Under the pieces are notes generated by a model. It searched no databases. It had not been told where the DNA came from and was given only the letters and a program-made list of their open reading frames with translations. A program made the translations under genes and the position numbers. From a bacterium (GTDB taxonomy: Bacteria > Zhuqueibacterota > Zhuqueibacteria > Residuimicrobiales > Krinioviventaceae): a stretch of 64,000 nt of DNA. Location of the stretch: NCBI GenBank assembly GCA_963675755.2, contig CAXXMD010000002.1, forward strand, positions 832,001-896,000, read 5' to 3'. This document shows, piece after piece, positions 15,748 to 63,296 of the stretch; positions within the stretch are counted from its first letter, which is position 1, and each line of letters begins with the position of its first letter.

Positions 15748-17163
15748 TCAATTTTGTATTCGTATAAATTCAATACGTCGATTTAGCGCTCTGCCTTCCT
15801 CGGTTGAATTGGTTGCAATAGGTTTATCGGGACCAAAGCCTACGGTTTCAATTCGTTCAGTACCAATACCTTTGAAAACGAGATAACTTTTAACAGATTC
15901 AGCTCGCATACCGGATAAACGTATATTTAAATCTCTTGAACCGGTATTATCAGTATGGCCACGTACCTGAACAGACATTTCAGGATAATCTACCAGTGTT
16001 CGATATACAGCGTCAAGTACCACTTTAGCATTATCTGATAATTCAGCGCTACCGGATTTAAAGGTAACACCTTTTAGTATGATTGGTGCTTTTGTTTCAA
16101 TCATGACTTCGGGTTTTTTATCGGGACAACCATCATTGTCTTCAAAACCATTAACTGTTTCTGCTTCATTCGGACACTTATCTAAATTATCCGGGATTCC
16201 ATCTTTATCATTATCAGGATCAGGGCATCCATCTTCATCCTGAAATCCATCTTTATCTTCAGCTTTTAACGGACATTTATCATTTTTATCTAGAATACCA
16301 TCATTGTCATTATCCGGATCGGGTATACCATCATTATCCTGAAAACCATCCAAGTCTTCAGGATCATTGGGAGCTTTATCTAAAGCATCTGCAATTCCAT
16401 CTCCATCATTATCATAATCCGGACATCCATCTTCATCCTGAAATCCATCAAAATCTTCTGGAACTCCCGGGCATTCATCCAGCTTGTCTTCTATACCATC
16501 ATTATCCGTATCTTTCCAGCCACCAAAGTAAAAATTAAGGCCAAATCGTGCTTCAATATTTCCTGTTTGCACATCACCAAAACCAGACATATCTTTATTC
16601 TGAGCAAAGAGCTGCTGATATCTTAGAGAAAAATCAAAAGCAAAATTCTCACCAACAAAAAACTCTGATCCTGCCCCTATATTTAACAGGGCATTTTTTT
16701 GCATTCCTGATATTTTTTCACCTTTGGGTGTTATAGGAATAACTGAATCATTGTTGCTGATATTGCGTAAATCCCAAAAAAGAATACCAAAACCACCAAT
16801 GAAATAAGGATTAATGGCTTTATCTGGTAATAAATTATATTTCATGTTAACCGTAACCGGGTATAAATATGTTCGAAACGGGCTACCTGGTTTTACAAGA
16901 ACATATTTCCCCAATCCGGATTTTGAATCATCAAAGGATCTGTCCCAACCAAACGCCAAGTCTACATTGATTCCATATTTGGGATTGATTGTATAACCGG
17001 CATTTAATCCAAACCATGGACTTGCCATACTATCATCCTGTTCACCACCAACAAGTTTTGTAACACTACCAAAAACACCGAATTGCACTTTACCCGTGCT
17101 TTGTTCACTAAAAACTAAACCCGCCATACACAACAAAACAATCACAACATTGTAGCGTTTCAT
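15748..17163 (-). CDS. OmpA-family outer membrane protein (beta-barrel + thrombospondin type-3 repeats + OmpA_C)
   Basis: Signal peptide; 8-strand barrel-like N half; DxDxDGIxDxxDxCP/DGFQDEDGCPD repeats; GHTDN...LSGMRAESV...NRRIEF. Start at ATG 17163 behind GGAGG. Confidence 0.93.
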   Translation of the reverse strand: MKRYNVVIVLLCMAGLVFSEQSTGKVQFGVFGSVTKLVGGEQDDSMASPWFGLNAGYTINPKYGINVDLAFGWDRSFDDSKSGLGKYVLVKPGSPFRTYLYPVTVNMKYNLLPDKAINPYFIGGFGILFWDLRNISNNDSVIPITPKGEKISGMQKNALLNIGAGSEFFVGENFAFDFSLRYQQLFAQNKDMSGFGDVQTGNIEARFGLNFYFGGWKDTDNDGIEDKLDECPGVPEDFDGFQDEDGCPDYDNDGDGIADALDKAPNDPEDLDGFQDNDGIPDPDNDNDGILDKNDKCPLKAEDKDGFQDEDGCPDPDNDKDGIPDNLDKCPNEAETVNGFEDNDGCPDKKPEVMIETKAPIILKGVTFKSGSAELSDNAKVVLDAVYRTLVDYPEMSVQVRGHTDNTGSRDLNIRLSGMRAESVKSYLVFKGIGTERIETVGFGPDKPIATNSTEEGRALNRRIEFIRIQN

Positions 17164-17244
17164 CTCACCCTCCCCGGTTTTCCGCCGGCACAAGCTTGTA
17201 GTTTTATTTAGACATCATAATTTGAAATAATTAACCCTTGAATA

Positions 17245-31338: not shown

Positions 31339-33660
31339 TTATTCAATATTTTTTTGAAATACCTGAAATTTTATGGTTTCTTTATAACCATCTTCATCCT
31401 GAACTGTTAACTGATGATTACCGGGATCTAAAGAAACCGGAAAATTGTGAATATCCTGTGTTTCACGCAAATACACTCCATCAAGATACCAAAAGATACG
31501 TGAAGACGGATTATGATGTTTCGCGGAAAAAACAATTTTTTCAAGCTTTCCATCAATATCTCTGGGTACAAAAATCTTGATTCCGTTAAGCGGATAAATC
31601 AACTCCAATATCGTCAGGTTCTGTTGAACAGGACAATCCGGTGCATGCTTGGGTATTTCATCACAATGCACACCCTGTTTTTCCAATACTTCTTTAACAA
31701 GTGGCGGTACAATATATAAACTAATAGATTGAGTTGGTTTGTTCAGCCAGCACAAAGAGCAAACAACATCTCTTGTATGCTCATCTATAATATAATGTTG
31801 ATGAAAAGGACAAAATCCGGGAATATAACTGTTTATAGGACGTTCAATCAATACGGTTTCAGGACAATCAGGGCCTGCAGGATAACCACTCTGCTTACAG
31901 CACTCCACCAAAACCAGATCATCATTGGGTTTATCAAACCACAATTCTTTTTGAGGATCAGTTAAAGCATTGAACAAATCAAACATCATGGGTGCGGCAC
32001 ATGATGCACCACTGATGGAAGCATTCCCTTCTCCTGTAAAATTACCAACCCACACTCCAATTGTCCATTGTTTATTTACACCAATGGCCCATCCATCTTT
32101 TTGACCATAGCTTGTACCAGTCTTCCAGGCAACGGGTACCTGGTTATTAAACCGCTGCCAGTAATATTCTGAACCGGGACGTTGAAGATATTTAAGCGTT
32201 TCAAGAATCTGCCAGGCACTGCCCTTGCTATAGAGCTGTAGATCGTTTTCAGATATTCGTGTTTCTTTATACGTTACCGGTACATGTAAACCCAAATTAC
32301 CCAATTCAACATATAATTGCAGCAACTCCCACAAACTGGCTTCAGCTCCCCCCAAAATTAGAGATAACCCATATCCATCTGGAGATCTGAACAAATGTTT
32401 AAAGCCAGCTTGTTGTAAAAAATAATAAAAATCATTTATGCCATATTGATTCAATAAACGTACTGCCGGAACATTCAAAGACTTTACAAGCATCTCTTCG
32501 ATTGTAACCAATCCTTGAAAAGTTTTGGTTGCATTTTGTGGGGCAAATGTACCATAAAAAGTGGGTACATCTTTTAAAACAGATTGGATTGTAAAAGGAC
32601 CCCGATCCAGCACATTTGCAGCCAGAAAGGGTTTGAGTAAACTACCCGTTGAACGGGATGAATTTACACCATCAACCTGTCCCTGGTTATCATTATCAAA
32701 AAAATCATGAGAACCCACATACGCTCTGACTTTGCCAGTTCCTGTTTCGGCAATCAAAAGTGCTGCATTTTTAATACCCATAGAGGATAACCAATTATAA
32801 TTGGCATCCATCATTTGTTCTGCAATAGCTTGTACATCCAAATCCAACGTTGTATGGATTAGATCCTGAGTAGATTCATTCTGTTTTACAAATTCAGTAA
32901 AATGGGGTGCTAAAAAAGGCAGTTTTTTTGTACCGGAAGGTAAAGGTTCATCACAAGCTATCAAATAATCCGTCTTATCAATAATATCATTATTGAACAA
33001 TTTCAAGAGCAATGTATTGCGTTTTTGTAAAAGTTGCTCTCTCCCCTTTTCCAGATTTAATAAACCGGGAGAATTGGGCAATACAACAAAAAGTGCTGCT
33101 TCTGCCCAGGTTAATTCAGAAATCGGTTTATTGTAATAACAATAGGATGCGGCTGAAATACCCACAATATTGCTACCCATGGGTACATGTGCGGCATAAT
33201 ACTTTAAAATTTCTTTTTTGGAAACATGAACCGTATAACGGAATGCCTGTGCACACTCCAAGAGTTTATTAAGTATAGTCCTTTGTTTGGGCTCTGCAAG
33301 TCTTGCAACCTGCATGGTTATTGTACTGCCACCCCGTTTGACCTCGCCAGCCTTAATATTCACAACAGTAGCATTCAGAATTGCTTTAACATCAAAACCT
33401 GGATGTCTGTAAAAGCGTTTATCCTCAAATAGTATCAAAGATTTAACATATTTATCAGGAAGGACCATCTCTTCCATAGGGAAACGGTACTGCTCATCAC
33501 TGCTCAGAAAAGCACGTATTAACCGACTATCCTGATCAAAAACCAGCGTTGAATAATCACAATGAAAGATATGTACAGGCCTGTATATCCAAATCAGATA
33601 AATCAAAACAAGAATAAATACAGGCCCATAAATATATAAATACTTTTTAGAAAAAGTCAT
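31339..33660 (-). CDS. pbpC: Penicillin-binding protein 1C
   Basis: FEDKRFYRHPG, GGSTITMQVAR (transglycosylase); GSLLKP (SxxK), SLN, KTGTS; C-terminal BiPBP domain. Confidence 0.95.
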   Translation of the reverse strand: MTFSKKYLYIYGPVFILVLIYLIWIYRPVHIFHCDYSTLVFDQDSRLIRAFLSSDEQYRFPMEEMVLPDKYVKSLILFEDKRFYRHPGFDVKAILNATVVNIKAGEVKRGGSTITMQVARLAEPKQRTILNKLLECAQAFRYTVHVSKKEILKYYAAHVPMGSNIVGISAASYCYYNKPISELTWAEAALFVVLPNSPGLLNLEKGREQLLQKRNTLLLKLFNNDIIDKTDYLIACDEPLPSGTKKLPFLAPHFTEFVKQNESTQDLIHTTLDLDVQAIAEQMMDANYNWLSSMGIKNAALLIAETGTGKVRAYVGSHDFFDNDNQGQVDGVNSSRSTGSLLKPFLAANVLDRGPFTIQSVLKDVPTFYGTFAPQNATKTFQGLVTIEEMLVKSLNVPAVRLLNQYGINDFYYFLQQAGFKHLFRSPDGYGLSLILGGAEASLWELLQLYVELGNLGLHVPVTYKETRISENDLQLYSKGSAWQILETLKYLQRPGSEYYWQRFNNQVPVAWKTGTSYGQKDGWAIGVNKQWTIGVWVGNFTGEGNASISGASCAAPMMFDLFNALTDPQKELWFDKPNDDLVLVECCKQSGYPAGPDCPETVLIERPINSYIPGFCPFHQHYIIDEHTRDVVCSLCWLNKPTQSISLYIVPPLVKEVLEKQGVHCDEIPKHAPDCPVQQNLTILELIYPLNGIKIFVPRDIDGKLEKIVFSAKHHNPSSRIFWYLDGVYLRETQDIHNFPVSLDPGNHQLTVQDEDGYKETIKFQVFQKNIE

Positions 33661-36600
33661 TTATTTTACAACAGTTTTATCACCGGCAAGACGAGCATAA
33701 TATTCCGGCGAATACATGGCCTCAACAACCACCGGAGGGATACGATATGTGCCTTTGAATGTGGGATTCAAATGAGCGGCAAATACAACCTCACGATATT
33801 TGGGCAAATCAAAGAACCAATTGATACGATCATCACGTATATCCATATAATCACCGTTGGCGGGATTATTCTTTTTCACCCATTGCGGAAGTTCTTCACC
33901 ATTTACACGATGATTAATTATTTCCAATCCAGCCGGAAAAATACTGCTCAATGCCAGCTCTTCCAGCGTGCCAACATATTCACTTTTGACTTTATAGATT
34001 ACCCAAAAAGATTTACCCTGTTGCAGATCTTTGACAGAGATGGGATATCCTTCTTCATTGAAAAATTTACGGTCAATCAGAATACCCTGATTCTCTGTTT
34101 TAATTCGATCTGTTACAGGTATACCTTCAACCTGTAATGAAACATAAACAGGATCACTGCTTTTCGTTGTAACAGTTATTTGTTTATTCAAAACATCAGA
34201 TATATCCAATACCTGCTGTGTTTGCTGTAATTCTATATCTTTAAGCTTTTTACCATCAACACTGACAGTAAATTTTACATCACCACCATTTCCGGGTGTT
34301 TTTGCATATAATTCGCTTGCTGCAAGCAATACAATTGCCGTTTCCTGAGTAGAATGCCAGCTTTTCGCTGAAAAATCATCAAATACCTTTTTAAGGATGA
34401 ATGATGCGGTTTTTGTATCATCCATTTGCAGGCACAGGTAGGCAATCATTGCTCGGTCACGCATGTCAGAACCATAGGTTCCACCCATTTCACGATAAGG
34501 TTTGATCTGCCATTGGGCCTGATCCACCTGCTTTGCAGCTTCCTTTTGTCCGGCAAGATAATATGCTGTAGCCAGAAATTTACGCGACAAAGGATCAAGA
34601 TCATCAAGATAGTTTTCCCTTACCAGGTTCATGGCGCCCATATCCGGTTTTTCTGCCAGTGATAACAAATACAAACGATAGGCTTGATACCTGTGATTTA
34701 ATATATTTGTCTGCCTTGCCATTTGTTTAGAACTGTTTATCCAGTGATTGTAGAGATTATCAGGGACATAATATCCTTTTCGTTTAGCAAGAATCAGGAA
34801 ATGCCCGGCATAACTGGTTGCCCAGTCATTATAATCATATCGATAATAGGAAGATAATGGCCAGTACGAGAAACCACGGGACAATTTGAATGAAGCAAGT
34901 CGCTCTATGGCGTTATTTACATTTTGAGTAATCATGGATTTTTGGTGATCTCTAACATTAATCAGATCATCCAGGAACAATTGTGGAAATGCGGATGATA
35001 CAGTCTGTTCTAAACATCCATAGGGATATCGAATTAGATATTGAAGACGTTCATCAACATTCAGATTCGGAATTTTTGAAAAAACCAGTTTTGCCGCATT
35101 GGTCCCTTTATAACCAAAAGGCTTGGGAGACAAAACCAGGTCCGTTCCTTTTACAAGCAAAGTGTCCAAAACATCTGTATAATAAGGATTTGGGCTTGAA
35201 ACAGGTAATTCCACAGTATAATCGGCTGAAAAATCACCGGAAATTGCTTTGATGATTAACGTATCCGCTCCAACACGGTTCCCGACTTTGATTCCAAAAT
35301 TTACAGCATCATCACCAATTTTAGTAAAAGTTAATTTCTTTGATGCTCCATCTAAGACAGTCATATTGGATGTTGTAGACAATTCTACAGTTACATCCCT
35401 TACACGTTCATCCATTGCAAAAACAGTTACAGGCAAATCAAATGTATCACCCGGGCGACCTACACGAGGCACTGTGGGCAATACCATTAACGGTTGCTTG
35501 ACAGGAATCGTCTCTTCAAGAGATACATAACTGTTTCCACTCGTCCCTATAACCATTACTTTAACCGAACCAACATAATTAGGCATTGTAAAAGAGGATT
35601 CAAGTGTTTCACCAGGTTTAATTTCAATGGGCTCCTGGAACAGAACCACAGGTTTAAAACGTTTAACCTGGGCCTTGTCCATTCGTTTTAAACGGGCTTC
35701 TTCCAACATGCCGCCGCCAATAGTAAAGTACTGGTCCATATCCGGGAACAGCATGCCAAAGATATCATCATAATTGTCCAGTGTTTGAACAGCCAGCATA
35801 ATTTTCTGATAAAAATAATCCCATGGAGAAGGTGTATCAAATGCAGTTATATCCAGTAAACCTTCATCAACAATTGCAATTGTTACCGAAGATGTTTTGG
35901 AAGCATTGGAATGGATCTTGACTGAAAAATCCTGTTTGGGTTCTAATGACTCTGGTACCGATAACGATAATGGCAAACGCGAATCTGCATTTTCTACGTA
36001 AATGGGTTTTACGCCATACATACGCATAGGCAAGTCATTGTCATCCTGGGTTTGCGGTTGCACAATATAAATTGAAGCATATACATTGGGAACCATATCA
36101 TCATTCAGATCAATTTTGAATTGGGTTTGATTACCTGAAATCTCTTTCCACTCGTGATGTAAAACCTGGTTACCCTGCTCAATCGTCAGGACTGCAATAC
36201 CTTTTGAAGGCGTATCAAAAGACAATTCAGCCGTATCACCAGCTTTGTAGACATTTTGATCAGAGCTGATTTGCAGGAAATTCCGTTCATCAGTCTCTTG
36301 GGCAACAACTCCCCTGCTCCATTTGCTGACATAGAAAAAGAAACCGGTTTGATGTCCCGATTCTTCATCGGTCACTTCAATATAATGTCTTCCATAATCT
36401 TCAATTTTGATTGAATGATTAAAAGGCTGATTGGTAGATGTATAAAGTTCTGTAGAGATTTTGAATGTTGAACTCGCTTTTTTGAAATTCCGTCTGTCAT
36501 CATCATCATAGTGCCACCACCAATGACCCTGCCCAACATAGGTTTCAACTTTTAATTTGCGACCGGAAACCGCATTACCTTCCTGATCAACTGCAACAAT

Positions 36601-39162
36601 TGGGATTTGATAGGATTCACCAAAACTGGCATTTCCATATTCAAAGACATCTTTAATACCACAATAACTTTCAAAAGGTGAAAGCGTAACAATTTTATAA
36701 TTATCTGTAAATCCACCACCTTTTTCATAGACTGTAGAATGCATAGAACAGCGTACTAGAGCATTTGCCCGATCCAAAGAATCAAAGGTATAGTTGATGA
36801 TGGTTTGCCCCTGATCATCCAGGTTCTTTTCAATAATATTCTTGAATTGCTGATTGAACGATTTAAGCGGAGATTCAAATATAAAATCAGGAAAAGAACT
36901 GGAAGCCAGAGATTTGTGTGTTAACACAGCTTCAATACTGGTTTTCAAATTGGCTGCAGGTGCACCAAAAAGATATTTGGATGTTAATGTGCCTTTTAAA
37001 ACAATCGGTCGTCCGGAAAGAAAATCCGGAACATCTGCATATACCTTTAAGCGGTTGGGTTTTATAGTCTCAATTTTAAGATTTTTAGAGAAATGTTGAT
37101 CGGCAATCTCCAGCATTGCTGTCCAGTCACCTGTAGGATCAGTTAATTCAGTAGGTATTGGAAAATATACATGTCCATTAGCTCCGCACTGGGTTTTACG
37201 CTCAAGAACCTGCTGGCCTCTCGAGTTTTTCACTTTGAGGATAACCGGTTGGTTTTCAGGCGGATTCTTTTTATCAAAACGAATGATTGCTGAAAAATGT
37301 ACAGTATCTCCGGGACGATGCACACCTCTGTCAGTATACATAAAAGCATCAATACCGCTTTTGGATCCTGCATGACCTGCAATATCAAAAGAATTCATTT
37401 CCCAACCGGGATGGTCCATTTTAACCAAAGCAATACCGGAATTGTCATTGCCATAAAGATATGATCCCTTTTCTTTAAAAAAGGCATACCCACTTGAATT
37501 GGTTGTTTCAGTTTCCAAGGGTTTGTTCTGATAACTGTACATAGTCAGCTTTAATCCGGATGCAGGCTTGGCAGTTAATACATCAATTGCCTGCACGTGT
37601 ACACCCTCATCGGCTTTTTTCACAGCCAAACCAATGTTGGAGGAAATCAACAACTTGTTGGAATTGCCCCTTGAATAATAATAGCCATATTGTGTAGGAT
37701 TATTGTAATAATCATCACCAGCAAAATATAATGTATTATCAGCAATCTCATTTTTACGATTTACCGGTTTTCCGGTAAGGTCTTCTTTATCAAAATTCAG
37801 TTGAACAACAAAAGCTGAGTTTTTCTTGTTTTTCAAAATCGGCCCAAGATCAAACTCGGTTTTTATCCATTGGTTCTTTTGTGTTGTAATGTCCAGTTTG
37901 TTTTCATAAACGGTTTCACCAACACGGTTTATATCTCTGAATTCATTGTCCCAGCCATAGGGATCAGAGTTCAGGCTTTTATCTTTGATCAGATTTTCCT
38001 GAATAAAAAAGCCAATATTTTGTGGAAAAATTTCATAGACTTTAACATCCATCCTGGCAATATTTACTGATTTGAACTGTAATTTAAAATCATTTGATGC
38101 AGGTAAATAAACTCCCTTTGAAAGCCATTCGATTTCGGGTTTAATATTATCCAGTGAAAATTTTTGAGTGAAATCATCTTTTAACTGTGTGCCGTATATG
38201 GAAGGAAAGCCTTTGTTAATAGTTATCTGATATTCTACACCCGGAACAAAAGCACCATTAACTTGAAGATATTTAGACTGTATCTTTAATTTATGCTCAA
38301 TCTGGGGAGATATCCTGATAAATCCGGAAAGATCAGTATTTGATTTAATTGGTTCATTGAAACGAAAACCATAAGTATAAAGCTTTGAATCCGGATCGCT
38401 CATATCCATATCACCAACTATGCGAAACTCGTCAATTCCGGCAAGGATAAATGAATAAGACCAGTCTTTATTATCAGCAGTATATGATTTGGGTAATGAG
38501 AAAACAAGACTTTTCCCCTGTCGGGTACGGTCCAGTTTTTCTGACACAACAGCCACCTGGTTACTGGCACCGGATATTTTCAAATCAAAATCAACTTTAC
38601 CGGAAGGGCCTTTTATGGTTAGATCTTTTTTCAGACGATCGAGTTCTATATCCTGTGAAAAAGTAATAACACCTGCAAATTGAACAACATTTTGCATTTC
38701 TGGAACAGGAACAAAATCACCTGTTACATTTACAATTTCCTGTTCCGCAACTTTGAATATAAATTCAAAATCGTCAACCTGGGTTTGTTCTCCAAAAGCA
38801 ATTTTACCATTAAACACACCTTTAACCGTCTTACCGGGAGGCAATTGAGTTTCAGCATTAAAAACTATCAAGTTCGTATTAAGCCATGTAGCGGTTCCCT
38901 TGATTCGGGGATCAAAAGAAAAGGGATTATGATCCAATTCATTTCCCACAAAATGCTCCGGAACAATAGGTTCTCTAAACTGAATTTCAATCCGGGTTTT
39001 TGCTGAAACCAATGATGGTGGATATTTAACGATTTCATTCTTTAAATCAATCGCATCTTTTTGAACGGTAACACCCGGGCTCGCTTGTTCTTTTTGTTGA
39101 GGTTTTTCCTGACATGCCAAAAGCAACAAAGCAAGAAACAGAAACACAAACAGTTTTTTCAT
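33661..39162 (-). CDS. Bacterial alpha-2-macroglobulin (YfhM-like) lipoprotein
   Basis: Lipobox LLAC; TDRGVHRPGD; VDEGLL; MPNYVGSVKVM; thioester motif YPYGCLEQ; DIRDDR; EAMYSP; directly upstream of pbpC. Confidence 0.95.
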   Translation of the reverse strand: MKKLFVFLFLALLLLACQEKPQQKEQASPGVTVQKDAIDLKNEIVKYPPSLVSAKTRIEIQFREPIVPEHFVGNELDHNPFSFDPRIKGTATWLNTNLIVFNAETQLPPGKTVKGVFNGKIAFGEQTQVDDFEFIFKVAEQEIVNVTGDFVPVPEMQNVVQFAGVITFSQDIELDRLKKDLTIKGPSGKVDFDLKISGASNQVAVVSEKLDRTRQGKSLVFSLPKSYTADNKDWSYSFILAGIDEFRIVGDMDMSDPDSKLYTYGFRFNEPIKSNTDLSGFIRISPQIEHKLKIQSKYLQVNGAFVPGVEYQITINKGFPSIYGTQLKDDFTQKFSLDNIKPEIEWLSKGVYLPASNDFKLQFKSVNIARMDVKVYEIFPQNIGFFIQENLIKDKSLNSDPYGWDNEFRDINRVGETVYENKLDITTQKNQWIKTEFDLGPILKNKKNSAFVVQLNFDKEDLTGKPVNRKNEIADNTLYFAGDDYYNNPTQYGYYYSRGNSNKLLISSNIGLAVKKADEGVHVQAIDVLTAKPASGLKLTMYSYQNKPLETETTNSSGYAFFKEKGSYLYGNDNSGIALVKMDHPGWEMNSFDIAGHAGSKSGIDAFMYTDRGVHRPGDTVHFSAIIRFDKKNPPENQPVILKVKNSRGQQVLERKTQCGANGHVYFPIPTELTDPTGDWTAMLEIADQHFSKNLKIETIKPNRLKVYADVPDFLSGRPIVLKGTLTSKYLFGAPAANLKTSIEAVLTHKSLASSSFPDFIFESPLKSFNQQFKNIIEKNLDDQGQTIINYTFDSLDRANALVRCSMHSTVYEKGGGFTDNYKIVTLSPFESYCGIKDVFEYGNASFGESYQIPIVAVDQEGNAVSGRKLKVETYVGQGHWWWHYDDDDRRNFKKASSTFKISTELYTSTNQPFNHSIKIEDYGRHYIEVTDEESGHQTGFFFYVSKWSRGVVAQETDERNFLQISSDQNVYKAGDTAELSFDTPSKGIAVLTIEQGNQVLHHEWKEISGNQTQFKIDLNDDMVPNVYASIYIVQPQTQDDNDLPMRMYGVKPIYVENADSRLPLSLSVPESLEPKQDFSVKIHSNASKTSSVTIAIVDEGLLDITAFDTPSPWDYFYQKIMLAVQTLDNYDDIFGMLFPDMDQYFTIGGGMLEEARLKRMDKAQVKRFKPVVLFQEPIEIKPGETLESSFTMPNYVGSVKVMVIGTSGNSYVSLEETIPVKQPLMVLPTVPRVGRPGDTFDLPVTVFAMDERVRDVTVELSTTSNMTVLDGASKKLTFTKIGDDAVNFGIKVGNRVGADTLIIKAISGDFSADYTVELPVSSPNPYYTDVLDTLLVKGTDLVLSPKPFGYKGTNAAKLVFSKIPNLNVDERLQYLIRYPYGCLEQTVSSAFPQLFLDDLINVRDHQKSMITQNVNNAIERLASFKLSRGFSYWPLSSYYRYDYNDWATSYAGHFLILAKRKGYYVPDNLYNHWINSSKQMARQTNILNHRYQAYRLYLLSLAEKPDMGAMNLVRENYLDDLDPLSRKFLATAYYLAGQKEAAKQVDQAQWQIKPYREMGGTYGSDMRDRAMIAYLCLQMDDTKTASFILKKVFDDFSAKSWHSTQETAIVLLAASELYAKTPGNGGDVKFTVSVDGKKLKDIELQQTQQVLDISDVLNKQITVTTKSSDPVYVSLQVEGIPVTDRIKTENQGILIDRKFFNEEGYPISVKDLQQGKSFWVIYKVKSEYVGTLEELALSSIFPAGLEIINHRVNGEELPQWVKKNNPANGDYMDIRDDRINWFFDLPKYREVVFAAHLNPTFKGTYRIPPVVVEAMYSPEYYARLAGDKTVVK

Positions 39163-39945: not shown

Positions 39946-40656
39946 TTAATTCTCTGCCTGTGTCCTCAAATCCGGCAGCAATACAATCTCAATTCTACGA
40001 TTTTGGCTGCGGCCCTCTGCTGTCTCATTGCTGGCGACAGGATGAAACTCTGCAAGGCCAACAGACTCGAGACGAGTAGGTTCTATCTCTACAGTTTCCT
40101 GCAAGAACCGAACTACATTTGATGCTCTCGCATTTGAAAGTTCCCAGTTTGTGGGATATTTTAATTTTAATTTTGAACTGATTGGCACATCATCCGTATG
40201 GCCTTCAACACGAATGATTTTATTCTCTGTATTTTTTAAAACATTCCCCACACGTTCTAATACTTTAACACCTTCTGATGTTATATCAGCTTCTCCTGAA
40301 GGAAACAAGATTTTATCAACCATGCTGACAGATAACCGGTCTGCCATTCGGGTTATTTTAATTTTCCCATCTTCGATCTCTGTTTTCATATCTTCTACCA
40401 GCTCATCATAAGTACCTTTAAGTCTGGAGATTTCTTCTTCTTTTTCCCTCGATATTTCAGAGATTTGGGTTTCAAGTTCTTTAACGATCGTTTCCTTTTC
40501 AGAATTCAATTTTTTGATTTCAAAATCTTTTTCCTGAATTTGATCTTTTAAATGATTAATATCCTGAGCAATTTTACCATTTTCATTGTAGAAATAAAAA
40601 CCTGCCAAAGCGAGTAATAGAGCAATAATTGCTACTATTATCAGTGCAACTCTCAT
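39946..40656 (-). CDS. OmpA/MotB-domain membrane-anchored protein with coiled-coil stalk
   Basis: N-terminal TM; coiled coil; ILFPSG, VEGHTDD, NWELSNARA, NRRIEI. Confidence 0.88.
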   Translation of the reverse strand: MRVALIIVAIIALLLALAGFYFYNENGKIAQDINHLKDQIQEKDFEIKKLNSEKETIVKELETQISEISREKEEEISRLKGTYDELVEDMKTEIEDGKIKITRMADRLSVSMVDKILFPSGEADITSEGVKVLERVGNVLKNTENKIIRVEGHTDDVPISSKLKLKYPTNWELSNARASNVVRFLQETVEIEPTRLESVGLAEFHPVASNETAEGRSQNRRIEIVLLPDLRTQAEN

Positions 40657-56022: not shown

Positions 56023-56050
56023 GGAACCTGCACTCTTTTAATAACGTCTA
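56023..56050 (+). promoter_or_regulatory. ECF sigma promoter upstream of the TPR-TonB operon
   Basis: GGAACC-N16-CGTCTA ending 35 nt before the ATG. Confidence 0.6.
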
Positions 56051-56085
56051 TTAATATAATAATCAATTATTTATCCGGGAAGAGA

Positions 56086-59000
56086 ATGATAAAAAAACTT
56101 TTTCTATTTCTGATCCTGTCTAATTCGGTTTATTTGTTTGCACAAACAACCGGTTCGCAGGCCGATAATGACTTTTATGTTGCAAAAGGAATGTATAACG
56201 ACCAGTTATATGATCTGGCAGCATCCCAGTTTCGGGAATTCCTCAGTAAACACAGGGATGAATCTCTGGCTGAGGAAGCACAATTCCTGCTTGGAGAATG
56301 CTATTATCAAAGTGGTGATTATTCACGTGCTGTAACGGAATACAAAAAATTATTATCCGATTACCCGGCCATTGGTTTCAGGGACAAGGCTTATTATCGA
56401 ATTGGCGAAACCATGGTGAATTCAGGCCAATATGAAGAAGGTATAAAAGCCTTTCAAATCTTTTTATCTCAATATCCCAAAAGTCCGTTAGTGACAGATG
56501 CGTATTACTGGTATGCCGAAGCTTTGTATCATACCGGTAATAATGCCAAAGCCCTTGAATATTATGCGCGTGTATATAACATGGATAAATCCGGTCCATT
56601 GGCTGACTATTCTTTTTATTCTGCAGCATTTATCTATGAAGAAATGAAAAAATGGGACCAGGCACTTAAAGCTTATCAACTCTTGTTAAAAAATCACCCC
56701 TCAAGTCCACTTGTGCCACAAACTACATATCGTATGGGTTTGGTCTATTTTGGAAAAGGTGAATATGATACTAGCATAAAAATTTTGGATAAAGCAATCA
56801 AAGATTATCCCAAAAACGATATGCGTTTTGAAGCCCAATACTTTATTGGAGAATCTTATTTCAAACTGGAACAATATGTAAAAGCACTTGAAGCCTATAA
56901 CATGGTTGCTGTTGTTCCTGACAACAGTTATGCCGATGATGCGCATTACAGCATGGGTTGGGCATATTTTAAAATCAATCAATTTGAAAATGCTGCACTC
57001 TCTTTCTCTCAGGCTGCTGAGATCAGCAATTCAAAAGAAATCATTTCATCATCATGGTTTCAGGCTGGCAGGAACCGTTTAAAACTGGGACAAACAGATC
57101 AGGCATCACAACTTTTTAAAAGAGTCATTCTGAACCACCCGGATTCCAAAGATGCACCCAATGCGATGTATGAACTGGGCTCTATTGATTTTGATGCCAA
57201 ACAAATTGCAGGCGCAAAACAATATTTTCAGGATATTGTTGATAAATATCCGGATTCTTCTATAGCTGGCCAGGCTTCCCTTATGATTGGAGAATGCTAT
57301 CTCTTAGACAACGATTCAGAAACTGCTTTAAAGGCATTTCAAACAACGGAATCCACATACCAATCTGCGTTTATTCAGGCAAATGCATTATTCAAGATGG
57401 GTAAACTTTATTATAATTCCGGTAATTATGCTAAAGCGCTTGAATATTTTAATAAAGTAAATTCTCAATATACAGATCAACTGGTACATAGCGAATCCAT
57501 GTTCTGGTATGCGGAAACCTTGTTCAAATCAAATGATTTTCAGCAGGCATTAACTTCATATAACAAATTCATAAAATATTATCCAAATTCACCCAAACTC
57601 GCTGAAGCATGGTATGGACTTGGATATGCTGCCATAAAAACAGACAACTTTCAACAAGCAGAAGATGCATTTAAAAATGCAAACAAGCTTGCAGATAATA
57701 AATCCTTAAAAATTGATGCATTATTACGGATGGGAGATGCAATCTTTAACACCAAAGAATACATCCGTGCTATTACCTATTATGAAAAAGCATTAAATAC
57801 GGATGCCTCTCATTCTCAAAAAGCAGAAGCTAATTTTCAAATTGGTTATTGTTATTACCGTAATACCAATTTTCATGTTGCAAAAAAATCATTTACCACA
57901 GTCACCCAAGAGTTTGGTGATACACAATATGCAGCGGAAGCTCAGTATATGATTGGACGTTGTTCCTTTCGTACCAATGATTTCCCTGAAGCTATTGCAG
58001 AATTCAACTCTTTGTTGAGTAAATATCCCAACAGCACTTTTGCGGATGATGCAACATATGCTATAGGAGACTGCTATTACAATCAGGGTGATTATGACAA
58101 CGCTATACTACAATACCGAAAATTACTAGACACTTTTCCCAAAAGTGAATATGTATCGGATGCAGTTAACGGTGTGCAATGGTCAATGATGCAAAAAGGT
58201 GAATCTGATGATGCCATGAACATGGTTGACGAACTTTTACCCAAAATAGACGATCCCGATGTTGCAGCCAAAGTGTTAATTCGTAAAGCTGAATTTGCAG
58301 AAAACATGCAGCAGTATGACCAGGCAATTGCACAATATCAGCTTGTTCTAAGAGATTATCCCACTTCGGAAGCTGCAAAAAGCATGTATTATCATATCGG
58401 TAAAGTTTATGATAAATTCAAAGATCCTGAAACTGCAGTTACCACGTTACAGAAACAATGGGAACAATATCCTGATACAAAAGCAGCGGCAGATGCTTTA
58501 CTACTGGCAGCATTAATACACCAAAAACAGGGAAACCATGACGCGGCAATTGAAACCTATGAAAAATTCATCGGTAATTTCCCCGATCATGATAAACTTG
58601 CAGAAGCGAATTATTTAGCCGGAAATTCCTGGTACAGTAAAAACAATATGGACATGGCGATTAAGTATTATCAAAATGCCATTACCATAAATAACAATGC
58701 AAGAACTACAAATCAGGCAAATATCGGACTTGCCAGGATCTATATTAAAACCGGCAAAACTGAACCAGCTGAAAGTATATTGCACAGTCTCACCAGCCAA
58801 ACGACTATAGATGCAGATCTTGCAGCTGAAGCACATTATCTCATCGGTGAAGTTTACAAGGCACGCGAGGAATATCAAAATGCAGTGGTTGCATTCTTGA
58901 AAATAAAATATATTTTTACAACGGAAACGGATTGGGTTGTTCGGGGCATTTACCAGGCCGCATTATGTAATGAAGAATTAAAGAAATATGACGAGTCCAG

Positions 59001-59094
59001 GCGGCTCTATAATTCAATTATTCGTGAATTCCCCAATCAAACAGAATATCAGGAATACGCAAAGAACCGGTTGCAGCAATTGGCAGGGAAATAA
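56086..59094 (+). CDS. Large periplasmic TPR protein (CpoB/BamD-like repeats, 1002 aa)
   Basis: Signal peptide; more than 20 repeats of the type AxxxYxxLLxxYPxSxxxxxAxYxxG. Confidence 0.92.
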   Translation: MIKKLFLFLILSNSVYLFAQTTGSQADNDFYVAKGMYNDQLYDLAASQFREFLSKHRDESLAEEAQFLLGECYYQSGDYSRAVTEYKKLLSDYPAIGFRDKAYYRIGETMVNSGQYEEGIKAFQIFLSQYPKSPLVTDAYYWYAEALYHTGNNAKALEYYARVYNMDKSGPLADYSFYSAAFIYEEMKKWDQALKAYQLLLKNHPSSPLVPQTTYRMGLVYFGKGEYDTSIKILDKAIKDYPKNDMRFEAQYFIGESYFKLEQYVKALEAYNMVAVVPDNSYADDAHYSMGWAYFKINQFENAALSFSQAAEISNSKEIISSSWFQAGRNRLKLGQTDQASQLFKRVILNHPDSKDAPNAMYELGSIDFDAKQIAGAKQYFQDIVDKYPDSSIAGQASLMIGECYLLDNDSETALKAFQTTESTYQSAFIQANALFKMGKLYYNSGNYAKALEYFNKVNSQYTDQLVHSESMFWYAETLFKSNDFQQALTSYNKFIKYYPNSPKLAEAWYGLGYAAIKTDNFQQAEDAFKNANKLADNKSLKIDALLRMGDAIFNTKEYIRAITYYEKALNTDASHSQKAEANFQIGYCYYRNTNFHVAKKSFTTVTQEFGDTQYAAEAQYMIGRCSFRTNDFPEAIAEFNSLLSKYPNSTFADDATYAIGDCYYNQGDYDNAILQYRKLLDTFPKSEYVSDAVNGVQWSMMQKGESDDAMNMVDELLPKIDDPDVAAKVLIRKAEFAENMQQYDQAIAQYQLVLRDYPTSEAAKSMYYHIGKVYDKFKDPETAVTTLQKQWEQYPDTKAAADALLLAALIHQKQGNHDAAIETYEKFIGNFPDHDKLAEANYLAGNSWYSKNNMDMAIKYYQNAITINNNARTTNQANIGLARIYIKTGKTEPAESILHSLTSQTTIDADLAAEAHYLIGEVYKAREEYQNAVVAFLKIKYIFTTETDWVVRGIYQAALCNEELKKYDESRRLYNSIIREFPNQTEYQEYAKNRLQQLAGK

Positions 59095-60779
59095 TGAAAA
59101 CGAAAATACTTTTATCCTTATTTATAATGGTTCCGGGGTTGCTGTTTGCACAAAAAGTGGTTGCTCCCCCCTCTCGTATAACCTTACCATCGGATACAAG
59201 TCGCGTTGTACCATCATCATCAAAGGTCAATGCTCAGGATTCAACTTTGACTGTACCCGAAGTGTTGATCTATGGCAAGGACAAAACCACCAGAAATGTT
59301 GATGATAAAATAGATTTTAACCAGGAAACACCAACCTTATACAAGCCTCAACTGGAGCATGATCCCGTCAGTAATTTGATGGCAAGCACCCAGAACAAAC
59401 CGGAATATGAAAGAACTGCAAATACAATGCAGCGCATGACTTGGGCAGATCTTACAGGTGGAGGTTATTCAACAGTAATCGCCAATGCAGGATACTGGCA
59501 GCGTATCAAAAAAGGTGATTTCAGGGTTAACGGTAATTTTGATCGCAGCAGTGGACAATTTGATAACAGTGATCATACAATGGGTGGTATTTCAGGAAAT
59601 CTTCACTATGTATTCAACAAATCCAAAACTACTTCGTTTGCAGAGTTGTATTCAAAAGATCTGGGCATGTTTAATTACATGGGTAGATCAGATGTTAAAC
59701 GCACAATCACGAACCTGAATGCCGGAACAGAATGGTATTTAAGCGTTAGTAAACTTGCGGATAGTAAAGTTGGTTTTCATTTCAACAATCTATCTATCAC
59801 GGATGATTCCAGTGCAACAATTAATACCAGAGACCAGTTTACCTATAAACTATTCGGTGAATATAATCAACAATTTAAATATGCTATGGTTAAAGGTTTT
59901 GGTGGTTTTGAAAGAGACTCTGATAATTTGGACAATGCAAGCAATCATTCACATTTTGGTGAGTTAGGGGCAGAATTTAGTGGTAACCCCATTAACTCGG
60001 TAATGCTTTCAGCGGGTTTAAAATACCAATCATTTGATTCCAATTTTCTTACATCTGTAGACAAAGCTGCACCCTTTGCAAAAGTTAATTACATGCCTTC
60101 AAAAAACATAGGAGTTACTTTACAGTATCAAAGTGGATTGGAATATACTCCCTTTACTGAATGGTTATCTCAAAATCCATACGTGGTTCCCGAAATTGCA
60201 AGTACAGCAAATGAATTGAAATACGACTTGCAATTTGATGTTCAATACGAACCCAAAGATGGCATGCACCTCTACTCTACCATTGATTATAAAGGTTATG
60301 ATCAATATATTTACTGGAACAGTCCCGATACTACATTAAATCCAGTATCATTAAATAGTCTGAATGATATGGATTTGCTGTCTTTTAGTCTTGGTGGAAA
60401 ATTTAATCTATCAGAACGTTCCAGATTACAAATTGGGTTCACTAAATATCAAACAAGTATGAACGATACTACTGGGTTTGTTCATAAAAATGTACCCTAT
60501 ATACCTGAATATATGGTTCCAGTTAAACTTATATTTGAACCCCTGAAAGGTACTACTATTTCACTGGATGCCGAAATAACAGGTAAAAGATATATTGCAG
60601 CTAACATGGATGAAACATTATCCGGGTATACTGTGTTTAATATAGCCGTGCAGCAATCATTTGGAAATATCTCTGCACATATTAAATTGCAAAATTTATT
60701 TGATTCTGAATATAGTTATTGGTATAATTATCCACAAAAAGGTGTTCATTTGTTGGCAGGTATTAGCGCCAGATTCTAA
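59094..60779 (+). CDS. TonB-dependent receptor-like beta-barrel apparently lacking a plug domain
   Basis: Signal peptide; TonB-box-like LTVPEVLIYG; strands begin at about residue 115; TBDT-type C-terminus GYTVFN...QNLFDSEY..WYNYPQKG..LLAGISARF; only 561 aa. Confidence 0.75.
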   Translation: MKTKILLSLFIMVPGLLFAQKVVAPPSRITLPSDTSRVVPSSSKVNAQDSTLTVPEVLIYGKDKTTRNVDDKIDFNQETPTLYKPQLEHDPVSNLMASTQNKPEYERTANTMQRMTWADLTGGGYSTVIANAGYWQRIKKGDFRVNGNFDRSSGQFDNSDHTMGGISGNLHYVFNKSKTTSFAELYSKDLGMFNYMGRSDVKRTITNLNAGTEWYLSVSKLADSKVGFHFNNLSITDDSSATINTRDQFTYKLFGEYNQQFKYAMVKGFGGFERDSDNLDNASNHSHFGELGAEFSGNPINSVMLSAGLKYQSFDSNFLTSVDKAAPFAKVNYMPSKNIGVTLQYQSGLEYTPFTEWLSQNPYVVPEIASTANELKYDLQFDVQYEPKDGMHLYSTIDYKGYDQYIYWNSPDTTLNPVSLNSLNDMDLLSFSLGGKFNLSERSRLQIGFTKYQTSMNDTTGFVHKNVPYIPEYMVPVKLIFEPLKGTTISLDAEITGKRYIAANMDETLSGYTVFNIAVQQSFGNISAHIKLQNLFDSEYSYWYNYPQKGVHLLAGISARF

Positions 60780-60805
60780 ACAAACAGAAACAAGGAGTCA
60801 CAATA

Positions 60806-61447
60806 ATGTCCATGATTGAAATCATCCTCAAGGGCGGTGTAATGATGATCCCCCTGGCCCTTTGCTCGGTAGTTGCACTTGCAATATTGATTGAACGGCT
60901 GGTATCCCTGAGAAAGATCCAGATTAATGCCCGTACATTTGTATTACAAGTCAAGAACCTTTTGCTTCGGAACCGAATCGATGAAGCAGTTGTAATGTGC
61001 AAAGAAACACCAGGTCCCATTGCCAAAATCACACATGCAGGTTTGATGAAGCATGACCGTCCCCGCGAAGAAATCAAAGATTCCATTGAAGGCGCAGCCA
61101 AAGTCCAGATTTATCATCTTGAGCGTAATTTGGGTGTTTTGGGAACAATAGCAGCTATTGCTCCATTAATTGGATTTTTGGGTACCGTAACAGGTATGAT
61201 CAAAGCTTTTATGCAAGTTCAAACACTTGGCGGCAGCGTAGATGCAAGTGTTTTGGCAGGCGGTATATGGGAAGCCTTGATTACAACAGCAGCCGGTCTT
61301 AGTGTTGGTATTCCCGCATTGATATTCTATAACTGGCTGTTGAGCAAAGTCGAACGACATGTATTTGACATGCAGGAAAGCTCGAACGAACTTATGGATG
61401 TATTCCTGGAAAAGGAGATTCAGAATGAACATCGAAACATCGCGTAA
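60806..61447 (+). CDS. exbB: MotA/TolQ/ExbB proton channel protein
   Basis: GGVMMIPL; LGTIAAIAPLIGFLGTVTGMIKAF; GGIWEALITTAAGLSVGIPA. Confidence 0.92.
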   Translation: MSMIEIILKGGVMMIPLALCSVVALAILIERLVSLRKIQINARTFVLQVKNLLLRNRIDEAVVMCKETPGPIAKITHAGLMKHDRPREEIKDSIEGAAKVQIYHLERNLGVLGTIAAIAPLIGFLGTVTGMIKAFMQVQTLGGSVDASVLAGGIWEALITTAAGLSVGIPALIFYNWLLSKVERHVFDMQESSNELMDVFLEKEIQNEHRNIA

Positions 61448-61826
61448 ACGGATGGTAATGTTTTCCACCATCTCTTTGACCGATATTGTTCTGCTGTTAC
61501 TGATCTTTTTTCTACTGACTTCATCATTCGTTGTTCAGCCGGGAATCAAAGTCAAATTACCCAATGCAGCAAGTGGTCAGCAGGATGATTCGGATAAAAT
61601 CTATGTCACAATCACTCTGGACAACCAAATATTTCTGAACCAGAGACAAGTTTCCATTACCCAGCTCGCACAGCAAATGGGTCAAATGTTGAATGAAAAT
61701 CCGCAAAAAATGGTTGTAATCAAAGCAGACAAAGATCTTTCACTGGAAAGAACAATCCGTATTGTAGATACAGCAAAACTAGCCGGCGCTGAACGGTTTA
61801 TGATTGCAACTGAACCAGGATTATAA
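61425..61826 (+). CDS. exbD: ExbD/TolR biopolymer transporter
   Basis: ATG 61425 behind AAGGAG; SLTDIVLLLLIFF with the essential Asp; IKVKLP; VIKADK. Confidence 0.92.
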   Translation: MNIETSRKRMVMFSTISLTDIVLLLLIFFLLTSSFVVQPGIKVKLPNAASGQQDDSDKIYVTITLDNQIFLNQRQVSITQLAQQMGQMLNENPQKMVVIKADKDLSLERTIRIVDTAKLAGAERFMIATEPGL

Positions 61827-61830
61827 TTTT

Positions 61831-62625
61831 ATGAAAAAGCTTTTTCAAAATTTAAATCTCAACAAAGCAATGGGAATATCTGTAATTTTCCATTTATTTT
61901 TGGTGCTGTTGTTTTATCTTGTTCACACTCAGATGGTAATGCCTTCACCGGAATACGCCGAGATATCATTTATGTCAAGTTCGAGCAAGACGGTTCCGGT
62001 ATCCACCAGACAACAGGCAAGACCACAGCCACCCAAGCCGGTTACAAAAAAACAGGAACCGGCACCTGAACCCGTTGCAAAAGAGGAAAAAACCCAACCT
62101 GTGAATCTTCCAAAATTCAGAAACAGATTGGATGAAGAAACAGACATGATTAAAAGGGATTATGGCAAAATTGATGCATCCTCATCAGCGCAAAAAATAA
62201 CACCGGATAATTCTGTTTATGATCAACGCGCACAAGCAATTCCGGATGATAATGACAGGAGCTATTACCCTACCCCATCTACCACAGAGAACGACGCAAA
62301 ACCATCGCTGGTAGAAAGAGACGGTATAAAACCTGGTGACTCGAATCAACCCTTTACAATTGAGGGTGATGCGGCTAAACGGACTTTGGTTAAAAAAGTA
62401 ATCCCACAATATCCACCGGGGCTTCAAAAAGAGGCTACAGTAAAAATTAGAATCTTTGTTTTACCCAATGGTGAAATCGGTCAAATGCTTCCCGTACTCA
62501 AAGGTGACCCGGTATTGGAAGAAATTACCTTGAAATCGCTTAGGGAATGGAAATTTAATCCATTACCCCCGGGTGAAAACAAGACTGTTCAAGGTATTGT
62601 TACCTTTAGATATGAATTAAGATAA
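61831..62625 (+). CDS. tonB: TonB-family energy transducer
   Basis: TM with SxxxH (SVIFH); Pro/Lys/Glu-rich linker; C-terminal PQYP...VKIRIFVLPNG...WKFNP. Confidence 0.88.
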   Translation: MKKLFQNLNLNKAMGISVIFHLFLVLLFYLVHTQMVMPSPEYAEISFMSSSSKTVPVSTRQQARPQPPKPVTKKQEPAPEPVAKEEKTQPVNLPKFRNRLDEETDMIKRDYGKIDASSSAQKITPDNSVYDQRAQAIPDDNDRSYYPTPSTTENDAKPSLVERDGIKPGDSNQPFTIEGDAAKRTLVKKVIPQYPPGLQKEATVKIRIFVLPNGEIGQMLPVLKGDPVLEEITLKSLREWKFNPLPPGENKTVQGIVTFRYELR

Positions 62626-62690: not shown

Positions 62691-63296
62691 GTGAAAGTGT
62701 TTTATACTCTACTGATCATTTTATTATCATCAAGTTTTGTTTTGGCAGAAGAAACACTTTTCAGTGGAGATATTACACATGGCGGTTATGGCGGCCCAAG
62801 CTTCAAAGTTGGTAAAGTATACAACAGTACCGCATTATGGATTGGTGGCGGCGGCGGCTGGATCATTAATCATCAATTTGTTATTGGTGGGGCCGGTTAC
62901 GGAATGGTCTCTGAACTTCGAGCACCTTCTGTAGCTCAACCCGTAGACGGCACAGATCTTGAATATTTTATTGATTTGGGGTATGGCGGTCTGTTACTTC
63001 AATATATTGCCAATTCAGATAAACTTGTTCACTATACAATTGGAGCACTTATTGGTGCCGGTGGTATAAGCTATTCAGACAGAAGATCAACCACCGAATA
63101 TGAAATTACAGACAGTGATGCATTTATGGTAATTGAACCCGGTGTGGATGTTGTATTAAATATGACCCGTAATTTCAGACTTGCTTTTGGAGTTAAATAC
63201 TTGTATGTATCCGGATTAAATAGTATGCCGGGATTAGAAAGTTCAGATATTAGCAGTCCCCAGTTTCATGTAATGCTTAAATTCGGTACTTTTTAA
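62691..63296 (+). CDS. Small outer membrane beta-barrel protein
   Basis: GTG start behind AAGGAG; signal peptide; Gly/aromatic strands (GGYGG, GGGGGWII, GYGGLLL); C-terminal LKFGTF. Confidence 0.8.
   Translation: MKVFYTLLIILLSSSFVLAEETLFSGDITHGGYGGPSFKVGKVYNSTALWIGGGGGWIINHQFVIGGAGYGMVSELRAPSVAQPVDGTDLEYFIDLGYGGLLLQYIANSDKLVHYTIGALIGAGGISYSDRRSTTEYEITDSDAFMVIEPGVDVVLNMTRNFRLAFGVKYLYVSGLNSMPGLESSDISSPQFHVMLKFGTF

Follow-up and report, generated by a model that had tools for sequence, protein, structure and literature searches.

The gene cluster that we report here is close to several described envelope systems: Tol-Pal, the Ton system with its TonB-dependent transporters (TBDTs), the Agl-Glt machinery of Myxococcus, PorE of the Bacteroidetes, and motor clusters of the Planctomycetes-Verrucomicrobia-Chlamydiae (PVC) group. 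The cluster was found in a 64,000-nucleotide stretch of bacterial DNA (assembly GCA_963675755.2, contig CAXXMD010000002.1, positions 832,001 to 896,000; GTDB phylum Zhuqueibacterota). We refer to this whole stretch as the window, and all positions are those of the window unless another contig is named. Five adjacent genes encode a large tetratricopeptide repeat (TPR) protein, an outer-membrane barrel predicted to be of TBDT type and without a plug, an ExbB/ExbD pair and a TonB-like transducer. The module is a variant of Ton/Tol-type systems; new here are the complete five-gene form with its motor and the complementarity to TolB. We suggest, with about even confidence, that it is a Tol-Pal-like, motor-driven system for tethering or constricting the outer membrane.

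The module resembles Tol-Pal in its 5:2 proton-driven motor and single-pass force transducer with SxxxH motif, in a periplasmic protein of CpoB-type TPR units, in a partner whose disordered N-terminus carries a "box" that could be grasped, and, in other phyla, in a division-linked gene context. Its occurrence is almost mutually exclusive with that of TolB. It differs from Tol-Pal in that neither TolB nor Pal is encoded in the locus, and in the outer membrane the partner is an integral barrel of 22 strands. The transducer has a C-terminal domain of TonB type, and the TPR protein has 1002 aa against about 270 in CpoB. Sequence identity does not place the ExbB of the module nearer to the canonical TolQ of sister families than to further paralogues in these families; where TolQ is encoded beside TolB, it matches over only part of its length, with 37-42% identity.

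With Ton systems acting on BtuB or FhuA, the module has in common ExbB-ExbD-TonB, a 22-strand barrel, a TBDT-like C-terminal region and a TonB-box-like strand. It is set apart from them by the missing plug (about 130-150 residues in a TBDT), short loops, a co-operonic motor of its own, single copy number, TPR/SPOR neighbours and the lack of substrate genes. Agl-Glt of Myxococcus comprises a TolQR-like motor, the TonB-like GltG/GltJ, the TPR protein GltC and outer-membrane barrels. It too has a Tol/Ton-type motor, TonB-like proteins acting on plug-less outer-membrane proteins, and TPR partners. Its barrels belong to another family, the module is free of adhesin and motility genes, and a GltG-like cluster is present separately in the same genome. 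NCBIfam models exist for GltG, GltC and GltJ.

Bacteroidetes are reported to lack identifiable tol-pal loci, and PorE, a compact fusion of CpoB, TolB and Pal, is proposed in the same paper to stand in for Tol-Pal in this group (PMC12204202). PorE thus addresses the same gap, the missing Tol-Pal of the Fibrobacteres-Chlorobi-Bacteroidetes (FCB) group, and also has TPR units. As described there, it is a single lipoprotein with no linked motor, whereas a motor and a transducer are part of the module. The two proposals are compatible with each other. How the outer membrane is constricted and stabilised in Bacteroidota and relatives without Tol-Pal is explicitly described as an open question (PMC12204202), for which the module is a concrete alternative to PorE with motor, transducer, outer-membrane partner and scaffold. 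We found no description of the gene set in the full-text literature that could be searched; subscription journals, bioRxiv supplements and the supplementary locus tables of PMC12204202, which may list such loci, lay outside this scope.

Gene order and operon structure

The genes and landmarks of the locus are as follows.

56086..59094, + strand: putative TPR scaffold, 1002 aa (TPR families throughout, according to Pfam, NCBIfam and the AlphaFold2 (AF2) model)
59094..60779, + strand: plug-less TBDT-like outer-membrane barrel, 561 aa (AF2 model and structural matches; no Pfam or NCBIfam family)
59250..59276, + strand: TonB-box-like motif, barrel residues 53-61, TVPEVLIYG (alignment of 72 family members)
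60806..61447, + strand: ExbB/TolQ-type proton-channel subunit, 213 aa (PF01618)
61425..61826, + strand: ExbD/TolR-type subunit, 133 aa (PF02472, membrane Asp present)
61831..62625, + strand: TonB-like force transducer, 264 aa (PF03544, TonB_C, at the C-terminus)
62691..63296, + strand: secreted Gly-rich open reading frame (ORF), 201 aa, possible accessory gene (sequence features; no family match)

An initial annotation, made from the sequence alone, had described five tightly coupled genes beginning at position 56023. The five-gene block stands; the start does not, since the first possible start codon is found 63 nt further downstream, at 56086. Direct reading of all four junctions confirmed the tight coupling. 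The TPR and barrel genes share a TAATG stop/start overlap (59092-59096), the barrel gene is separated from ExbB by 26 bp with an AAGGAG ahead of ExbB, ExbB and ExbD overlap by 23 bp, and ExbD and the TonB-like gene are 4 bp apart. The longest ORF for ExbD begins at 61359, and the ATG at 61425 is preceded by AAGGAG. Scans of promoter-like sites (33 against 28.2 expected) and terminator-like sites (6 against 5.9 expected) gave chance levels, so that the assignment to one operon derives from the tight packing of the genes.

A transporter barrel without a plug

The barrel protein consists of a signal peptide (residues 1-20), a periplasmic extension (21-113), 22 strands (114-560) and a C-terminal beta-signal that ends in F (...GISARF). 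The AF2 model has a mean predicted local distance difference test (pLDDT) score of 83.8 and short loops. Residues 34-107 fall below a pLDDT of 50, and averages over 10-residue blocks from residue 1 to 110 range from 28 to 56. All of the approximately 50 Foldseek matches listed for the barrel were TBDTs, and so were all 50 rows returned by VIA-align (including FhuA, BtuB and PqqU), with Z 22-25 and root-mean-square deviations of 2.6-3.4 Å over 390-448 residues. When the low-confidence parts were trimmed, residues 111-561 of the model aligned to BtuB 133-594, i.e. to the barrel behind the plug.

The segment ahead of the barrel is only 93 residues long, and the protein has no Pfam or NCBIfam match, hence none to the plug domain PF07715. 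The same genome contains 53 Plug matches in other genes. An exhaustive phmmer search with the barrel yielded 151 cluster representatives, and most of the full-length ones had about 520-610 aa. A profile built from 72 family members matched solved TBDT barrels with E = 1.6e-13, over the C-terminal strands only. PF00593 was matched by 17 of the 72 members at E <= 1 (best 4e-11), and not by the window protein. Plug was absent from the 25 families listed for the 72 members; a further 13 unlisted families each match at most one member. As far as the model can tell, the protein is a TBDT-type outer-membrane barrel without a plug, and structure prediction found no plug fold in its N-terminus, in keeping with the earlier view. 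Of 12 family members listed, the one that is named in its source is a "hypothetical protein", and the Atlas clusters of the family are unnamed or called "TonB-dependent receptor family" (530-563 aa).

The motif TVPEVLIYG is located inside the extension that is modelled as disordered. Its family consensus is LELPDVLIYG, in which columns 54, 55 and 61 (consensus L, P and G) are nearly invariant in the 72-sequence alignment, and variants were present in orthologues read from loci labelled Gemmatimonadota, Marinimicrobia, Ignavibacteria and Bacteroidota. We judged a similar strand, for example ETPEVLITANK, to occur just ahead of the plug in 19 or 20 of 20 plug-bearing TBDTs read from the same genome. 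The alignment and the C-terminal residues thus bear out the claim of a TonB-box-like segment and a TBDT C-terminal signature in a protein of only 561 aa. The spacer between box and first strand, estimated earlier at about 60 residues, measures about 52, because the box ends at residue 61 and the first strand begins at 114. A complex prediction with barrel residues 21-561 and the C-terminal domain of the TonB-like protein (165-264), both with alignments, scored 0.00; it was run without controls and is evidence in neither direction.

Motor, transducer and TPR protein

ExbB matched PF01618 (MotA_ExbB, 115.6 bits) and ExbD matched PF02472 (106 bits), both above the Pfam cut-offs. The NCBIfam scores of ExbB, 103.5 bits for tolQ and 72.8 bits for exbB, were below the respective cut-offs, and the NCBIfam equivalog cut-offs for exbB, exbD and tonB were not reached by the motor proteins of the module. 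The TonB-like protein has an N-terminal membrane helix with S17xxxH21, a linker rich in Pro, Lys and Glu, and a C-terminal TonB_C domain (PF03544, 32.9 bits against a cut-off of 24.6). TIGR02794 (tolA_full) matched its N-terminal part only, with 33.2 bits against a cut-off of 59.45. H21 and P94 of the linker were invariant in 23 of 23 orthologues; the C-terminal domain and a linker segment, PVNLPxRRMLEEEEP, were also conserved. The motor residues reported earlier as intact could be located at D20 of the 133-aa form of ExbD, in the membrane, and at S17 and H21 of the TonB-like protein.

The TPR protein was modelled with AF2 from an alignment with 24 orthologues (pLDDT 92.6). A signal peptide is followed by 53 helices (residues 25-999), which form one unbroken TPR solenoid; the model is all-alpha and contains no other domain. 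There is no lipobox Cys at the signal peptide. The best NCBIfam match is TIGR02795, tol_pal_ybgF, with 435 bits (cut-off 90.1) in 13 repeated stretches, and TPR_6 scores 365 bits, which assigns the units, by score, to the CpoB/YbgF (TPR_6) type. In sister families the CpoB proteins have only 269-276 aa. Foldseek returned, among the matches listed, only generic long TPR scaffolds (IFT-A, Ski3 and Ctr9; TM 0.2-0.36), an uninformative outcome.

Conservation of the gene cluster

The conservation of the module is far beyond chance. Within the same order, the barrel is single-copy in 39 of 41 relatives, and the order TPR-barrel-ExbB-ExbD was retained in all 11 loci that were read. TonB follows in 10 of them, and the eleventh stops at a contig end. 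Identity in these loci is 64-85% for ExbB and 36-53% for the TPR protein. For the barrel it is 22-33%, excluding the same-genus locus L013 (88%).

In order to survey loci more widely, we used ExbB as the query; a single barrel protein as query reached only the sister genome. The closest ExbB relatives (63-80% identical) were mostly metagenome-assembled genomes (MAGs) labelled candidate division KSB1, and further close relatives were labelled Cytophagia, Calditrichaeota, Neomarinimicrobiota, Gemmatimonadota or simply "bacterium". A barrel-profile match upstream on the same strand was present in 53 of the 80 loci fetched in this way (at E <= 1e-25 in 50 of the 53), and most of these also contained a TPR gene of about 1000 aa. 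Their labels include KSB1, Calditrichota, Gemmatimonadota, Marinimicrobia, Ignavibacteria (Stygiobacter electus, Melioribacter), Balneolales and Chitinophagales. The module occurs in cultured organisms such as Stygiobacter electus (L122), and also in numerous complete genomes of Bacteroidota.

Of the remaining 27 loci, several begin at a contig end, and many are labelled Omnitrophota or "Planctomycetia" and hold only TPR (about 820 aa)-ExbB-ExbD. In these MAGs, ExbB relatives of about 46-52% identity directly follow the TPR gene (L093, L095, L097, L098, L102, L116, L120, L125, L132 and L134). Such loci recall the TPR-tolQ-tolR-tolR-vWA transducer clusters described for the PVC group (PMC12204202). 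They differ from the module in lacking the barrel and, in nearly all cases, a TonB-like match. They may be the TPR-tolQ-tolR-vWA clusters of that paper (PMC12204202).

The initial annotation had mentioned a conserved pair of a TPR protein and a short TBDT-like protein in Bacteroidota. This was confirmed with 201 evenly drawn Bacteroidota genomes: 113 had one barrel match at E <= 1e-25, and the matching ORFs encode about 530-650 aa. Among 16 Bacteroidota loci on long, mostly megabase-size contigs, a TPR gene of about 1000 aa stood directly ahead of the barrel in 7, and in 6 the barrel was followed by a gene of about 600 aa and then by ExbB-ExbD-TonB.

Gene context in other phyla

In two Ignavibacteria loci, barrel and ExbB are separated by a gene for a SPOR-domain protein (896 and 637 aa), and a protein with an HU-like domain and a SPOR domain occupies the same position in one Balneolales locus and one locus labelled Chitinophagales (368 and 378 aa). 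The gene that comes after the barrel in two further Bacteroidota loci has a match to the C-terminal part of RlpA, which we take to be the region that holds its SPOR domain. SPOR domains bind septal peptidoglycan. FtsK is encoded upstream of the barrel, at a distance of two or three genes, in the Balneolales locus and in one Flavobacteriia-like locus.

On one Gemmatimonadota chromosome (L080, 8579-10732), the motor is followed by QueF, a gene for a 207-aa BamD/CpoB-like TPR protein and a BatD-like gene. No TonB-like match was found in this locus, where a 159-aa ORF on the opposite strand comes right after ExbD. Queuosine genes are reported to adjoin tol-pal often (PMC12204202).

Distribution relative to TolB

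For the phylum of the window, the barrel profile and the TolB model TIGR02800 were run on the same 113 genomes, each at least 90% complete. With thresholds of our own choosing, E <= 1e-39 was counted as a barrel orthologue and E <= 1e-50 as TolB. The barrel scores fell into two groups, with E <= 1e-39 in 66 genomes (12 families) and E from 1e-7 to 1e-23 in the other 47. The matches listed for these 47 were ORFs of about 600-860 aa, at the level of ordinary TBDTs. The resulting counts, together with those for the Bacteroidota sample, were as follows.

Phylum of the window, 113 genomes: 61 with the barrel alone, 32 with TolB alone, 5 with both and 15 with neither
Bacteroidota, 201 genomes: 112 with the barrel alone, 38 with TolB alone, 1 with both and 50 with neither

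The distributions of the barrel and of canonical TolB are thus almost complementary. In the phylum of the window, TolB was present in 5 of 66 barrel-positive and 32 of 47 barrel-negative genomes; in Bacteroidota, 39 of 201 genomes were TolB-positive. Two whole families of the first sample are TolB-positive throughout and lack the barrel: f8 (15 of 15 genomes) and f14 (12 of 12; 11 of 11 if the unpublished G118 is left out). Complete tolQ-tolR-tolA-tolB-pal-cpoB operons were read in two genomes of these families, with TolB, Pal and CpoB above cut-off. The motor orthologue is also missing from five barrel-less genomes, since their best ExbB match is only 37-39% identical, against 45-80% in cluster-bearing loci, some of them from other phyla. 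Conversely, five cluster-bearing genomes of other lineages contained no TolB above cut-off.

Proposed function and alternative explanations

The locus had been proposed to encode an envelope machine, with Tol-like homeostasis of the outer membrane, export of proteins or lipoproteins, and envelope biogenesis as options. The Tol-like option gained evidence because of the near-complementarity with TolB and the SPOR/FtsK neighbours in other phyla; no support was found for export of proteins or lipoproteins or for biogenesis of outer-membrane proteins (OMPs). In a Tol-Pal-like mechanism, the ExbB/ExbD-type 5:2 motor in the inner membrane would energise the dedicated TonB-like arm, and the C-terminal domain of this arm would grasp the TonB-box-like strand in the periplasmic N-terminal extension of the barrel. 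Because the box would be that of a plug-less barrel, the force would fall on an outer-membrane anchor and not on a plug. The CpoB-type TPR solenoid, probably made in step with the barrel by translational coupling, may act as a periplasmic scaffold that joins the barrel anchor to cell-wall or division proteins. The outcome would be tethering of the outer membrane and an inward pull along the cell body and, presumably at the septum, during division, which is the job of Tol-Pal elsewhere.

A broader version of this proposal, to which we give slightly less than even weight, is that the module functionally replaces Tol-Pal across much of the FCB superphylum (KSB1, Calditrichota, Gemmatimonadota, Ignavibacteria, Rhodothermota and many Bacteroidota), and that a transporter barrel, after losing its plug, became the division-site handle that the TonB-like arm pulls. 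The lumen might carry an envelope component such as phospholipid, and the KSB1 operon would identify the cognate motor for those Bacteroidota versions whose motor genes have been relocated. If true, this would provide a naturally occurring example of a TBDT barrel that is used with no plug inside, and would add to the targets in the outer membrane that are known for 5:2 motors. Should the barrel be essential or needed for envelope integrity, it would offer a surface-exposed target in gut and oral Bacteroidota.

Several observations weigh against a Tol-Pal-like role. The 22-strand fold argues for a channel, because a mere anchor would not need such a barrel, and the C-terminal domain of the transducer is TonB-type, not TolA-type. 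SPOR genes of the source genome are found elsewhere; neither they nor a peptidoglycan-binding module occur in the KSB1 operon. The comparison of TolQ and ExbB scores was dropped as an argument: the NCBIfam TolQ score does not discriminate, because all four ExbB/TolQ-type paralogues of the genome score higher as TolQ, all below cut-off. The linkage of TPR, barrel, ExbB, ExbD and TonB is conserved in other genomes, as the initial annotation expected, but not universal: in 3 of 5 checked genomes with a barrel-less ExbB locus, the barrel is on a different contig. Six genomes carry both the barrel and a full-length TolB (G008, G090, G097, G105 and G109 in the phylum of the window, G315 in Bacteroidota), and 15 and 50 genomes, respectively, have neither system at the chosen thresholds. 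Moreover, the complementarity is one of clades: the same state is common to whole families, and genomes that are related do not count as independent. The TolB-positive Bacteroidota recur at mostly regular intervals in the sample, which suggests one clade. From the shared states of whole families and this apparently single clade, it follows that few independent events are involved. Finally, the proposed role is inferred from genes, folds and distribution.

As an alternative, the barrel may be a gated channel. It would then be a minimal TBDT whose lumen is occluded by the extension or by a partner, and the pull by TonB would open it for import or for export of a periplasmic substrate, with the TPR protein as receptor or chaperone. 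The homology and common fold with TBDT barrels favour this possibility, as do the co-operonic ExbB-ExbD-TonB motor and a TonB-box-like motif like that of the TBDTs of the same genome. A precedent comes from the TBDT Oar of Myxococcus, which is reported to export a periplasmic substrate (PMC6434023). A preprint describes "lidless and often plugless" small SusC-like transporters in Bacteroides polysaccharide-utilisation loci, a context that differs from that of the module, and an engineered plug-less SusC-like mutant that works, which we count for a gated channel (10.1101/2025.11.13.688124). We nevertheless regard a gated channel as unlikely. There is no plug, only about 90 residues modelled as disordered are available for the lumen, and the barrel loops are short. 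Conservation is single-copy and housekeeping-like, with fixed TPR/SPOR/FtsK neighbours and no substrate-related genes. The family scan of adjacent genes listed a superoxide dismutase, an FAD-dependent protein, a small OMP-like ORF and Amj, and no ABC importer, SusD-like gene or substrate enzyme; nor does the barrel locus cluster with siderophore or B12 loci, both as originally held. The complementarity with TolB has no obvious explanation under nutrient uptake.

It is less probable still, and in our view improbable, that the module is a motor-energised conduit for export or homeostasis of a non-protein envelope component such as exopolysaccharide, a lipopolysaccharide-linked glycan or phospholipid. 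AlgK/AlgE, BcsC, PelB and PgaA show the same arrangement of a giant TPR protein and a translationally coupled, hollow barrel, and polysaccharide-synthesis genes are located 5-13 kb upstream of the module, on the opposite strand. The barrel is of the TBDT type with 22 strands, however, against 16-18 strands in the known porins of such systems. No synthase or glycosyltransferase was linked in any locus read, and synthase-dependent secretion systems have no TonB-type motor. BcsC, PelB and AlgK were also missing from the Foldseek matches listed for the TPR model, which is weak evidence. A role in lipid homeostasis would still be Tol-like (PMC11889096).

An energised machine for the biogenesis of OMPs or surface lipoproteins, made of a BamD- or Slam-like TPR protein and the barrel, is very doubtful: the TPR units do match BamD/YfiO (262 bits) and weakly Slam TPR, and to our knowledge it has yet to be established how lipoproteins come to be exposed on the surface of Bacteroidota, but the fold of the barrel is neither that of Omp85/BamA nor the 14-strand one of DUF560, POTRA domains and linked lipoprotein or chaperone genes are missing, and TolB complementarity and SPOR/FtsK context point elsewhere.

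Other motors and Tol components of the source genome

Genes for flagella and for type IX secretion are also present in the source genome (6.48 Mb, three contigs). Its full MotA/ExbB genes number five, namely that of the module, MotAB and those of three further clusters. One of these is a generic Ton cluster (C3:1250000-1265000), ExbB-ExbD-ExbD-TonB with a tandem copy of the ExbD / 140-aa ORF / TonB unit, which can serve the 53 plug-bearing TBDTs. At C3:1866000-1881000, a TonB_C protein (313 aa), ExbB and ExbD directly precede a 998-aa GH123-like glycoside hydrolase, near LptG; this pairing of motor and enzyme is unusual. The third cluster (C3:2952000-2967000) encodes TPR proteins (464 and 883 aa), ExbB, two ExbD-like proteins and a 460-aa GltG/AgmX-like protein with a TonB_C end, and recalls parts of Myxococcus Agl-Glt.

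TolB remained below the NCBIfam cut-off genome-wide; the best match (99.5 bits against 343) covered the propeller only, in proteins of about 1000 aa. Pal was likewise below cut-off genome-wide (best 81.6 bits against 125.35, in OmpA-family proteins of 240-614 aa outside the locus). Two ORFs of 303 and 288 aa (C3:1146408-1146821 and C1:217110-217547) match the N-terminal domain of TolB (model positions 15-154) and have no propeller.

Downstream ORF and other genes of the window

The 201-aa ORF begins 65 bp after the TonB-like gene, ends in ...KFGTF and matches no family of Pfam or NCBIfam; its product resembles a small outer-membrane barrel. Its membership in the module is uncertain, because among the loci of relatives only some have it after TonB (L013, L019, L060, L062, L063 and L069, with two copies in L060). 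We considered it as a separately encoded plug and rejected this, given its barrel-like appearance and its absence from many loci that carry the module.

Elsewhere in the window, two OmpA-family peptidoglycan-binding proteins are encoded on the reverse strand, one of 481 aa with barrel, thrombospondin repeats and OmpA domain (15748-17193) and one of 236 aa (39946-40656). Both are unlinked to a motor and below the Pal cut-off. At 31339-39162 (- strand), a PBP1C-type bifunctional penicillin-binding protein adjoins a bacterial alpha-2-macroglobulin of 1833 aa, which is a known pairing.

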